Positions 56,633 to 60,562 of a DNA stretch of 64,000 nt are shown here, one piece after another. A model generated the notes under the pieces. The model did no database searches. It was not told the origin of the DNA and saw nothing but the letters and a program-made list of their open reading frames with translations. The translations under genes were made by a program, and so were the position numbers. The stretch is from Podospora anserina (lineage: Eukaryota): assembly GCA_017654855.1 (NCBI GenBank), contig CM030333.1:3286001-3350000 (forward strand), given 5' to 3'. Numbering within the stretch: position 1 is the first letter of the stretch; each line of letters opens with the position of its first letter.

Positions 56633-57298
56633 CTTGGCTTTGGAGAGCTGGGAAGTTGCTTTGATGGTCAAGAAGGTGTGAGATCCGGATAGGCCTGGGT
56701 TCGAAAGCGGTTGATGTTTGGGAGAAGAATTTGGGCGAGGGGAATCGATTTTGAAGTTCCGTTGGCTCAACCAAAGTCCGGACCCTTCCATACCCGAACT
56801 TTAATTCCTCACCGGACTAAGAGTGCACCTTCCTCCCCGACAAGAGAGGATACGACATCCGTTATCAGAAGCCACCCGACGCCAGGCAGCACCACCGGGG
56901 AGTGAGGGGTAAAAGTGTGGGGAAATACACACATGATGCATTGCAATCAAATCGTGCAACACCTGACCCAAGAAACACAAACAACAAACAGAATGCCAAG
57001 CGAGTGCCCCTGAGCCCCTGAATCCTTTGTCAATTGAGTCTTTGGCACCCCGGCAAACACTTGGTCCACATTGCTCCCTCCTTCGTTTTTGAAAACCAAC
57101 ATCTTGAATGGGCTTTCCTCTCAAACAGATTATCCATCTTCAAGCTGCCTTCCACTCTTCATGACCACCAGGAAACTTTGTCCACCAGCGTGCGCATATC
57201 ACGAACAAAGCTATTGCATCTCACAAAGACCAGAAACACTACCCTAAGATATGCCTAGTGGCAGTTGGAGGAGTGTACTTACGCCAGACGGAAATTTT

Positions 57299-57854
57299 TT
57301 AAACCACTTCCCCGCTACCTCTTTGATGTTGCTCGAGAACCTCCCCATCATCCCCCCTGCGTTTAAACTCGAGAAGCAAAAAGTATGTCCCCGGAATCAT
57401 TCGATTTTCGCCAGCACCGAGGGGTTTGGCCAGTTGTGGAAGAGACTGATGAATGGTGGGCTATTTGGACGAGGCCCACTCACCTTCAAACTTCTTGCGG
57501 GCGAGTTCGCCGCCTGCCACCTGGGTTTCAAAAAAATCTCAGCCAAAGAAATAAAAAATCCAAGACGAGATATTTATAGAAAAAAAAATATAAAAAAATA
57601 AACAATAAAAAAAAAGACAGGCTCACTTTCAGAAAATACATCATCAGCCTCCCGTCTGGGTCTATGGCTTCGATATAGGCGGTTTGGTCCCACTAACTGG
57701 AGCTACCAGGGATGATGTCGAGGAACGTTGTGCCTTTGGGCGCTGCGTCTTCGACTGCGGGGTCGATGGTTCGGATCCGGCTATGTTTGAGCAGATGTCC
57801 GCGTGGGATGAGCCGGTGTTCTGCCATGACTTTTGCCATGCCGAATTCTGCCAT
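57299..57854 (-). pseudogene. Fructosamine-3-kinase-like N-terminal relic; exons 57854-57627, 57520-57299; in-frame TAG at 57695 and 57463
   Basis: Manual translation: ...IDPAVEDAAPKGTTFLDIIPGSSS*WDQTAYIEAIDPDGRLMMYFLK|VAGGELARKKFEGEWASSK*PTIHQSLPQLAKPLGAG...TYFLLLEF; phase-0 intron GTGAGC..GCTGAG..CAG. Family call is by pattern recognition only. Confidence 0.65.
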
Positions 57855-58229
57855 GTCGATCTTCTGTCACGGTTGGTGGTTGAAGTACTGAGTGAGAGCA
57901 ACGAGACCTACCTAGCCACCTCAGGTACCTCCCTAGTTATACTCACAGAGCTGACAGCTTCTTAGCGGAATCTTGGTGCACTTTTGAAACACACGCCATT
58001 CTCGTGACTAGTTACTCTCTGTCGGATGGAGAGAATGTATGAAAGATATGTTGGCTCCCAAGTTATCGATGGGTCATACGAGCTACGCAGTGGCAAATAG
58101 GTATGCACCCTCGTGCCTGACGCATGTGGAAAATATCCTACAAGGGGGGACAACAGGAGATGGAATTGAAAAAAAAAATCGAATTGATCAATTGGGAAAA
58201 ATAGAAGGTAAAGGGAAAAAAATACCATC

Positions 58230-58408
58230 AAAAAGCTCACCGAGCAGCCCACATTGGGGGTGCCCAGCTACGAAAACCTGTAAAGGTTTTACTTCGCCAA
58301 AGGCTCGAGCGGACACCCCTTGGTACTCTTTAGTCCTTACCCAAATCGGTGCCGCGACTCCCAATACTGCTATGCCATTTGGCAGGAGCCGAGTTGGGAG
58401 TCTCATTC
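58230..58408 (-). ncRNA. Candidate structured RNA polymerase III transcript of unknown family (~175 nt)
   Basis: TATATATA 58435-58442, A-box-like TGGCATAGCAG, B-box-like GCTCGAGCC, several nested stems, TTTTT at 58234-58230 and a T-rich trailer. Confidence 0.5.
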
Positions 58409-59104
58409 GATGATCGAAAGGGCGCGGGAGTTGGTATATATACCGTGGGAGCAGGGAGCAAGTGCTCTCGGACGACAACCAACACCGAAAGAGCGTTGCT
58501 CTTGACACAGGGCCCTGATGTTATCCAGACCTAGCAGTTAAGAAGTATTAGAGTGCCTAAGCTGGGTCTGTCAATCAGGTAGGTAGCCATCAGTTTCGCT
58601 CCCTGTGCAAGTCAGTCTTGAAATTCCAGTCGACATCTTTCCCCTTCGTCTCGATTGCGTGGCAGACATGATAGCTTCTCCGCGGTGTAAACAATAAAGA
58701 CGACACTTCCGAAGAATATTTATCTATACCTGCCATTAACTTTGCTGGGAAATGTCCGGTGATGCTCCGTAGGCTCATCACGAGTTGACGGTTCTCGCCC
58801 ATACCGCATGTTACCTAAGCAGCCAAGCAAGCAGAGAACAAACTAATCAAAGAGAGATATCAGTGACACTGAACAGATTTCCTCTCTTTTCTCACATCTT
58901 CAACATCCCAACCGACAGCATTTGTCGTCCACCCCGCCACCTAATCCCGAGTGAAAAGGGTTAGGGTTGCACATCCAACTCATCCCTAAGCCAAGCACGC
59001 CAGGGATCATCCCCTAACAACTCCCAAGTCTCCACCAACACAAAAAAGCGAGAAAAAAAGTTCAAAAAGAACTCTTCCTTGTTGGAAGGACGCAAAAGCT
59101 TGGA

Positions 59105-59193
59105 CGATCCGCCCAGGGGTCGAACCTGGAACCTCCTGATTACTTGATCTTTTGGAATCGTAGTCAGACGCGCTGCCATTACGCCAGCGGACC
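59105..59193 (-). tRNA. tRNA-Arg(ACG) with 17-nt intron
   Basis: GGTCCGC/GCGGATC acceptor stem, TGGCGTAATGG A-box, TCTGA-CTACGA-[TTCCAAAAGATCAAGTA]-A-TCAGG anticodon arm, CCAGG-TTCGACC-CCTGG T arm, downstream T runs. Confidence 0.95.
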
Positions 59194-59305
59194 TTGTTTT
59201 TTTGTTGGAGACTCTTCCTAGAGGTTGAGTTTATGATGCCGACATGGTGGCAACAGCATATGGTCAAATACTCCCACAATCCAATGCCACATCTATGTAA
59301 TGATC

Positions 59306-60562
59306 CTACTCCTTATCTTTATACAGCTGCAGATAACTTGCTTTGAGCCTATCAAGAATGTCAGCAATAAGCTCGCGAGGTACCAACAAGAGCACTCACC
59401 TCATATGCAAATGCTCATCAGCAGTCAACACCTTCCTCTCGGCATACGGATTCCCCTGCTTCGCCTGCGCATCCCCCTCATGATTCCTAACCCTCTCACT
59501 CGGCACAGGCTCCAACAGCGTCGTCCCCACAGGGTGGCAGAAAAACGCAATCGAGTACCTCGGCTCAGTATCCGTCTCACCGGCCACAGACGTCTTGCCC
59601 GGACCAGGAAACACCACCCTGTGAACTGTGCTCCTGAGCAGCCCATTAGTCCAGTAAGAAAGCAAATCCCCGATGTTCAACAGGATAGGAGGGGAAGGAT
59701 CATTCTCAGTCCCCGGTGGCACCACAGGAACAGGAGCCCACGTCTTCCCGTCTTGGGTCAGAATCTCCAGACCAGCCTGTCCCTTGAGGCGGAAGAGAAG
59801 GGTCATGGAACCGTAGTCAGAATGAGCCCCTGCGCGAACATCCTCCTCACGATTTGCGTCAGGGGTATCGGTGTGGGGCGGATAGTAGAGGAACCGGAGG
59901 ATGGTTCCCGAAGCGCCCCTTTCGCGGACGTGAGCGTTCTTAAAGAAGTCAGGGGGTGTGACCTGGAGACCGATGCCGAGGAGGGTGTTGATCTTGAGGC
60001 AGAGGTTGTAGCAGAGCTCACGGAAGTCGTTGATCTGGCTTTCGTGAGGGGCTATGGTGGGTGGCATGGGTTGGTCGGCTTTGCCGTTGATGAACTCGCC
60101 AAAGTTGAAAGCCCTGGACCTACTGTGAGTGATGAAAGCTACGATATATTGGGAGGATACTCACTCTTTGAAGTCACCGACCTGTTGCCTGTCAGTAGGA
60201 GGACGGTACATATCATCATGCGACACTTACACGCTGGGTTGATGGATCCAATGTCTCATACTGCATAGCAGACCAGCCGCGGTTGTTCTTCTGAATAGCA
60301 CATGCCTGCTTCTCTTCAAGTGGTGCTTTGAAGATCTTCCTGCCCTATGATGGTATGGTTAGATAAGCTTCAGACTCAGCTGTAAAGAAGATGGTACCAT
60401 ATCAAATGCGCCATGTACAGCATCGGCAGGAATATCTTTCCCTGTGTTCTTGATGTATATGAAGCCATGTTCAATGGCGGCCTCCACGAGCTCCTTGGCC
60501 ACCTGCTCCTGATTCTCCCCCGAGAGGTCAATGACGGGAATCTTTGCAACTTTGTTAGCCAT
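59306..60562 (-). CDS. 2-oxoglutarate/Fe(II) oxygenase, IPNS-like; exons 60562-60398, 60344-60231, 60181-60165, 60113-59400, 59348-59306
   Basis: IPVIDLS, HGFIYI, NRGW, GDFKEAFN, LRFLYYP, AHSDYGSMTLLF (HxD), STVHRV, RYSIAFF; four GT-AG introns including a 17-nt micro-exon. Confidence 0.9.

Follow-up and report, generated by a model that had tools for sequence, protein, structure and literature searches.

Few small RNAs besides tRNA, rRNA, snRNA, snoRNA and the Neurospora milRNAs have, to our knowledge, been described in filamentous fungi, and we know of no RNAs of the Y, vault or 7SK type in filamentous ascomycetes. Y, vault and 7SK RNAs are lineage-specific scaffold RNAs made by Pol III.

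Of the Neurospora milR genes, the available text of PMC3547838 reports that a T cluster directly follows the milRNA sequences and that milR-1 needs TATA-like elements together with Pol III. The available part of the Podospora anserina genome report (PMC2441463) describes non-coding RNAs found by homology only; snRNA genes are multi-copy there, with 12 spliceosomal RNA genes from homology search and 14 snRNA genes in the genome table, and 'repetitive elements of unknown origin' are given in Additional file 3. The snoRNA genes of N. crassa are mostly singletons according to the accessible portion of PMC2780460. An RNA-seq re-annotation of P. anserina yielded 1732 unannotated transcribed regions, and its text, as far as available, does not name the locus studied here (PMC9801653). 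Six strings of 15–17 letters taken from this locus occurred in none of the literature texts searched, and these texts contained nothing on the locus itself. The family described below could already stand in the snoRNA lists of PMC2780460 or in the repeat table of PMC2441463.

Here we analyzed a 64,000-nucleotide stretch of P. anserina DNA, termed the window, and delineated a unit of about 175 nt on its minus strand (58404–58229). It folds, matches no known RNA family and exists in several diverged copies, and most probably represents either a family of small RNA genes or a short repeat whose function is obscure. In layout the unit resembles N. crassa milR-1 to milR-4 as presented in the available text of PMC3547838, being a small non-coding unit of the same fungal order that is preceded by a TATA-like element and ends in a T cluster, and, like one of the milR genes, it lies next to a tRNA gene; the Neurospora loci are, however, defined there by small RNAs and Pol III ChIP. 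Unlike the milR genes, the unit has a second branched domain and exists in three or more additional copies.

In size class and compactness of its fold the predicted RNA would be comparable to the Y, vault and 7SK RNAs, with which it would also share an oligo-U end, a non-coding nature and the presence of several diverged gene copies; it matches no Rfam model of these RNAs, and pairing between its 5′ and 3′ ends is not evident. The Sm-class snRNAs (U1, U2, U4, U5) offer a further parallel in their hairpin, their single-stranded RAU3-6GR-like site, for which GAUUUGG is the putative equivalent, and their structured 3′ part; the U1–U5 models, however, gave not even a weak match, and the U run of the motif comprises three residues only. 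Fungal SINEs and other short repeats are similarly short, multi-copy and located within longer transcripts, with possible internal words resembling a Pol III promoter.

Genomic context and sequence elements

Of seven long ORFs of the window, four occur in the protein collection searched; three of these belong to clusters in which the named members are proteins of Podospora and close relatives (PODANS_2_8520, 2_8620 and neighbours), and the fourth cluster is without names. The window thus very probably belongs to P. anserina chromosome 2. The genes surrounding the unit all lie on the minus strand, in the order 2OG-Fe(II) oxygenase, tRNA-Arg, unit, uncharacterised ORF region and CutC (Pfam). An initial annotation made from the letters of the window, the sequence-only reading, had placed the unit between CutC and tRNA-Arg. 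This holds for the tRNA side, whereas direct adjacency to CutC does not, as a transcribed ORF region (ATG 57854, minus strand) intervenes. This region (57000–57860, minus strand) contains a probable T-rich intron at 57530–57640 and pieces too short for Pfam, and it is covered together with CutC by one contig of sequencing run X1.

The tRNA-Arg(ACG) gene comprises 89 bases and carries an insertion after the anticodon with 21 unaligned bases, compared with 4 in the Rfam model, which we read as an intron. Other tRNA-Arg copies, found in contigs of run X21, deviate from this gene mainly at 59141–59163, corresponding to the putative intron. Within the oxygenase gene, spliced contigs omit 115 bases at 60114–60228 (minus strand) and retain 15 letters that equal window positions 60165–60179; the gene seems to hold a micro-exon of 15 bases flanked by two introns of about 50 bases. 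A further oxygenase intron (59348–59398, minus strand) takes out the stop codon closing the long ORF at 59396, and by our reading the true C-terminus would lie about 15 codons further on, in the next exon. One contig of run X19 joins the spliced oxygenase mRNA to DNA that includes all of the tRNA-Arg gene and extends some 350 bases past it, down to 58756 (58756–59347), and either the tail of the oxygenase mRNA or a read-through transcript seems to span the tRNA gene.

Inspection of the sequence located all motifs proposed in the sequence-only reading on the minus strand. The elements of the locus are the following:

58229..58404, minus strand: repeated non-coding unit, candidate RNA body of about 175 nt, based on folding, other copies and the lack of an Rfam match
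58442–58435, minus strand: TATA element TATATATA, 32 nt ahead of the first stem
58356..58402, minus strand: 5′ hairpin domain (47 nt) with a 9-bp lower stem, inner GCU/AGC and GCC/GGC helices and an AAAU loop
58402–58394 with 58364–58356, minus strand: lower stem of 9 bp, GACTCCCAA pairing with TTGGGAGTC
58384–58373, minus strand: TGCCA/TGGCA hairpin
58377–58367, minus strand: A-box-like TGGCATAGCAG
58325..58363, minus strand: most conserved segment, with 2 differing letters in 39 relative to the copy on a 2001-nt contig
58238..58351, minus strand: second domain as initially proposed, closed by CACCGA/UCGGUG; letters present, weak fold
58351–58346 with 58243–58238, minus strand: CACCGA/TCGGTG, proposed closing stem
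58257..58319, minus strand: three-way-junction domain, consisting of a 9-bp helix that includes one U-G pair, plus two small hairpins
Within the junction domain, minus strand: the 9-bp helix GGGGTGTCC/GGGCACCCC with its U-G pair
Within the junction domain, minus strand: the hairpins GCC-TTT-GGC and AAAACCT-TTAC-AGGTTTT
58310–58302, minus strand: B-box-like GCTCGAGCC
58234–58230, minus strand: T5 run, possible Pol III terminator, followed by T7 at 58222–58216
58456..58501, minus strand: upstream hairpin, mostly under the 242-nt X19 contig (58253–58494)
59105..59193, minus strand: tRNA-Arg(ACG) gene with the putative intron (Rfam tRNA, 46.2 bits; ARAGORN)

A motif scan of the minus strand identified an Sm-site-like GAUUUGG (58347–58341) directly abutting a 5′-splice-site-like GUAAGG (58340–58335), both located in the most conserved segment. 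GAUUUGG fits the Sm pattern RAU3-6GR, but with three U only and with part of the motif paired in the minimum free energy (MFE) structure, and we estimate that a motif of this type occurs by chance in about one of ten stretches of the length of the unit.

Secondary structure of the unit

We analyzed the folding of the locus by z-scores of the MFE relative to 200 shuffles per stretch. For the complete unit (58404–58230, 175 nt, minus strand) the MFE was −70.7 kcal/mol with a z-score of −3.09, equalled by 3 of the 200 shuffles. The 5′ hairpin exhibited an MFE of −23.8 kcal/mol and a z-score of −6.0, and the junction core (58319–58257) a z-score of −3.66, in both cases with none of 200 shuffles equal. 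The designation of the locus as highly structured, for which a comparison with shuffled sequences had been suggested, is thus well founded. The upstream hairpin (58501–58456) yielded a z-score of −2.31 (7/200 shuffles equal).

The second domain as originally drawn, including its CACCGA/UCGGUG stem, reached a z-score of −1.86, with 10 of the 200 shuffles equal. The letters of this stem are in place, whereas the stem itself does not form in the full-length MFE structure, which pairs these bases otherwise. The plus strand of the same 175-nt stretch folds at least as well (z-score −4.21; 0/200 shuffles equal), so that folding energy gives no preference for the minus strand.

Comparison with known RNA families and coding potential

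A search of the whole window with the 4227 models of Rfam 15 at gathering score yielded the tRNA at 59105–59193 as the only match, and none on the unit. At E ≤ 10, two weak matches were obtained in 57900–58800, both off the unit, with 0 matches in 58215–58450; the absence of a known family, for which an Rfam check had been proposed, is hence upheld even at this permissive threshold. ARAGORN found one tRNA gene in the whole window and none at the unit, on which the Rfam tRNA model was also without a match. A box C/D RNA carries a C box RUGAUGA near its 5′ end and a D box CUGA near its 3′ end; RUGAUGA, UGAUGA and CUGA were all absent from the minus strand of 58200–58530, and the plus strand had no C box. 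ARAGORN, Rfam and the motif scan thereby agree with the initial statement that the unit bears no hallmark of a tRNA or C/D snoRNA. For box H/ACA RNAs, defined by two hairpins, an ANANNA hinge and an ACA three bases ahead of the 3′ end, the sole ACA of the unit (58281–58279) is situated in a hairpin loop, with none near the 3′ end. Possible short-word resemblances to 7SL, to 5S and to U2 or U4 loops were dropped, the Rfam models of those families being without a match.

Searches with the ORFs across the unit on the plus and minus strands returned no protein relatives, and the copies described below differ by indels of 1, 2 and 4 bases (that of 4 bases tabulated, the rest hand-aligned), so that the unit is not coding. 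A spliced, signal-peptide-like ORF (ATG 58406, GUAAGG 58340) was also considered and rejected: no joint was reported there, and the copies carry frame-breaking indels.

Further copies of the unit

Sequencing runs from 7 studies were used to look for the unit elsewhere. Part of the stretch was contained in 23 of the 24 runs listed and at least half of its words in 20; eight runs were flagged as potential origins of this DNA. No run was recorded as RNA, and contigs of four runs were compared. Such contigs show neither strand, ends nor level. Gaps in their cover (X1, 58035–58227, where a contig stops at 58228; X19, 58495–58755; X21, 58177–58368) were not counted as evidence, and neither were differences in contig depth between the unit, its copies and the oxygenase mRNA, as depth does not rank genes. 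In X1 and X19, which stem from different studies, the oxygenase gene exhibits GT..AG joints on the minus strand at 59348–59398 and 60344–60396, indicating that both runs contain RNA-derived contigs.

Several contigs match part of the unit and then continue into unlike flanks. One of 2001 nt matches 58325–58363 with 2 differing letters in 39, and one of 973 nt matches 58335–58403 with 8 differing letters in 69. A further X1 contig matches 58229–58278 and carries a 4-base deletion at 58243, beside the CACCGA/UCGGUG stem. Partial matches with foreign flanks were confined to the span 58229–58404, and X1 and X19 agree letter for letter in the loose ends at 58325 and 58363. The partial matches represent other copies, at least three in number, whose flanks differ. 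The multi-copy, SINE-like option named in the sequence-only reading is compatible with this copy number, which was taken from contigs only.

Within the window itself, neither word search nor blastn revealed a second copy. A covariance model run over the window with filters off returned 19 hits at E ≤ 10, namely the unit at 223 bits, an overlapping plus-strand hit at 25 and the rest at no more than 10.4 bits. When metagenomes were scanned for an 18-base core word, 16 loci emerged, in all of which the blastn likeness was limited to the seed (18–25 bases); a 19-base word gave 16 loci among prokaryote genomes, all bacterial by title and left unaligned, and the viral scan gave 0 loci.

Divergence between the copies

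Beyond the aligned pieces, the copies were compared by hand over a few loose ends of 30 letters, which is thin evidence. Past the aligned pieces they are still alike, with indels of one and two bases besides the 4-base deletion. The inner motif GCCAAAUGGCnUAGCAGU of the 5′ hairpin is retained in two other copies, n being A, U or G across the three. For the AAAACC..GGUUUU hairpin, both arms are kept in a second copy, where the loop has another sequence and exceeds that of the window by two bases; at the seventh pair, U-A in the window, this copy has C-G, both sides having changed. The 32 bases 3′ of this hairpin are identical between the window and the second copy, and the hairpin ahead of AAAACC is formed by other letters in one of the two copies compared than in the other. 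Opposite G, four C-to-U changes would yield G-U pairs in the minus-strand RNA only, provided that their unseen partners are unchanged. Two substitutions would break pairs unless compensated, a U-to-C opposite A and an A-to-U in the uppermost pair of the 5′ hairpin.

The likeness has discernible limits on both sides. Upstream of 58404, hand alignment with one copy leaves only about 16 of 26 positions alike, with 2 gaps, and at the other side the likeness to another copy ends at 58229, one base past the T5 run. The unit thus behaves as a gene with its own ends, and the copy pattern looks more like that of a gene family than that of neutral repeat copies. Diverged copies with kept helices, loop differences, indels and one two-sided pair change together indicate a real, non-coding, dispersed family.

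Putative promoter elements and transcript boundaries

The sequence-only reading had described a Pol III gene with internal A and B boxes. Allowing at most 1 mismatch, the window contains 41 matches to the A-box pattern TRGCNNAGYGG where 46.6 are expected, and 80 of 100 shuffles reach 41; for the B-box pattern GGTTCGANNCC, with at most 3 mismatches, it contains 1303 matches where 1473 are expected. Both matches are no commoner than chance; the A-box-like word is retained in two other copies. At the 3′ end, where Pol III termination calls for at least five T, the unit carries T5 and then T7, and the minus strand of 58235–58530 contains no T5.

The locus is covered by an X19 contig of 242 nt (58253–58494) and an X1 contig of 906 nt (58228–59133), both of which continue across the proposed start and the TATA element into upstream DNA. 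This speaks against the transcript envisaged in the sequence-only reading, with 175 nt and a start 33 nt past the TATA element; a discrete RNA of that size is not seen. The TATA element lies inside at least some molecules, either transcripts or carried-over contaminating DNA, that include sequence upstream of it.

Alternative explanations

The unit could be a dispersed repeat of small size, such as a SINE-like retroposon or a different non-autonomous element, carried passively in longer Pol II transcripts; its folds would then belong to the element and not to a cellular RNA. The existence of four or more diverged copies is in line with this, three of them in contigs that extend at least 255 letters past the likeness; the 973- and 2001-nt contigs fit elements within longer transcripts, the window copy lies under the 906-nt contig that reaches upstream to the tRNA gene, and the element may be among the 'repetitive elements of unknown origin' of P. 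anserina mentioned in the available text of PMC2441463. On the other side, Rfam reveals no tRNA-, 5S- or 7SL-like part, and inspection revealed neither an A-rich or simple-repeat tail, the T5 run being followed by a T-rich flank, nor a clear target-site duplication, the flanks sharing only the three bases ATG. A MITE would be expected to carry terminal inverted repeats, whereas those in 58100–58600 are internal helices only, and the ends are not TG..CA. The likeness moreover stops at the T run, as at a gene terminator, changes cluster in loops with one pair compensated (by hand), and there is no second copy in the 64 kb. None of the 20 runs with at least half of its words lacked the unit, so no insertion polymorphism was seen. 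On balance we regard a dispersed repeat as somewhat unlikely, yet as a strong rival of the reading favored below.

The remaining explanations appear weaker. A milRNA precursor, i.e., a Pol III transcript yielding RNAs of 19–25 nt by cleavage of its 5′ hairpin, as for Neurospora milR-1 to milR-4, would fit the TATA box, the T5 run and the strong 47-nt hairpin, yet this hairpin has only 17 pairs, interrupted by internal loops, and conservation reaches into the second branched domain and the linker, which such a precursor does not need; we consider it improbable. Slightly less probable still is a function of the plus strand as the structured 5′ leader of a non-coding transcript starting near 58228: the plus-strand z-score and the X1 contig 58228–59133, which has no stated strand, are compatible with it, but the U-G pair of the 9-bp helix and the four C-to-U changes opposite G fit the minus strand only, the TATA and T runs are positioned for the minus strand, and the plus strand revealed neither an ORF nor an RNA motif. 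Finally, the fold could be fortuitous and lie in a read-through tail of the 2OG-oxygenase mRNA from upstream, an explanation that could draw on the X19 contig that links this mRNA via the tRNA gene to 58756 and on the X1 contig spanning 59133–58228. Diverged copies with foreign flanks elsewhere bring this explanation close to refutation, and the 5′ hairpin, with its z-score of −6.0, is far from chance, making it highly improbable.

Proposed nature of the unit

We tentatively favor, somewhat short of an even likelihood, a minus-strand family of small-RNA genes, possibly made by Pol III, whose product acts as a protein-binding scaffold. The unit (58404–58229, minus strand) would then be one of at least four copies of a dispersed, structured non-coding family in a P. 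anserina-type genome, and the gene for a small structured RNA whose family is absent from Rfam. Its RNA would be read from the minus strand and end at the T5 run, and the most economical route of production would be Pol III acting via the upstream TATA-type promoter. The predicted fold comprises the 5′ hairpin and the three-way-junction domain, linked by a highly conserved single-stranded linker. Such an RNA could serve as a stable protein-binding scaffold, with a U-tail as putative binding site for La and the Sm-site-like GAUUUGG in the linker as another, a role that we rank as likelier than that of a precursor of small silencing RNAs.

A more far-reaching version, which we consider unlikely, is a lineage-specific structured RNA family of Podospora and perhaps other Sordariales, with several diverged genes that each have a TATA-type promoter and an oligo-T terminator and that are unrelated to described families. 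If true, it would constitute an equivalent, in fungi, of regulatory scaffold RNAs of the Y, vault or 7SK type, and the Sm-site-like and 5′-splice-site-like words of the linker could bind Sm proteins or the U1 snRNP. Should the unit instead be a short repeat, it would matter for annotation, as transcribed intergenic DNA beside a tRNA gene, and would account for part of the 'repetitive elements of unknown origin'. If it is a family of structured RNAs absent from Rfam, present in several copies in a fungus that serves as a genetic model, it could reveal a new RNP.
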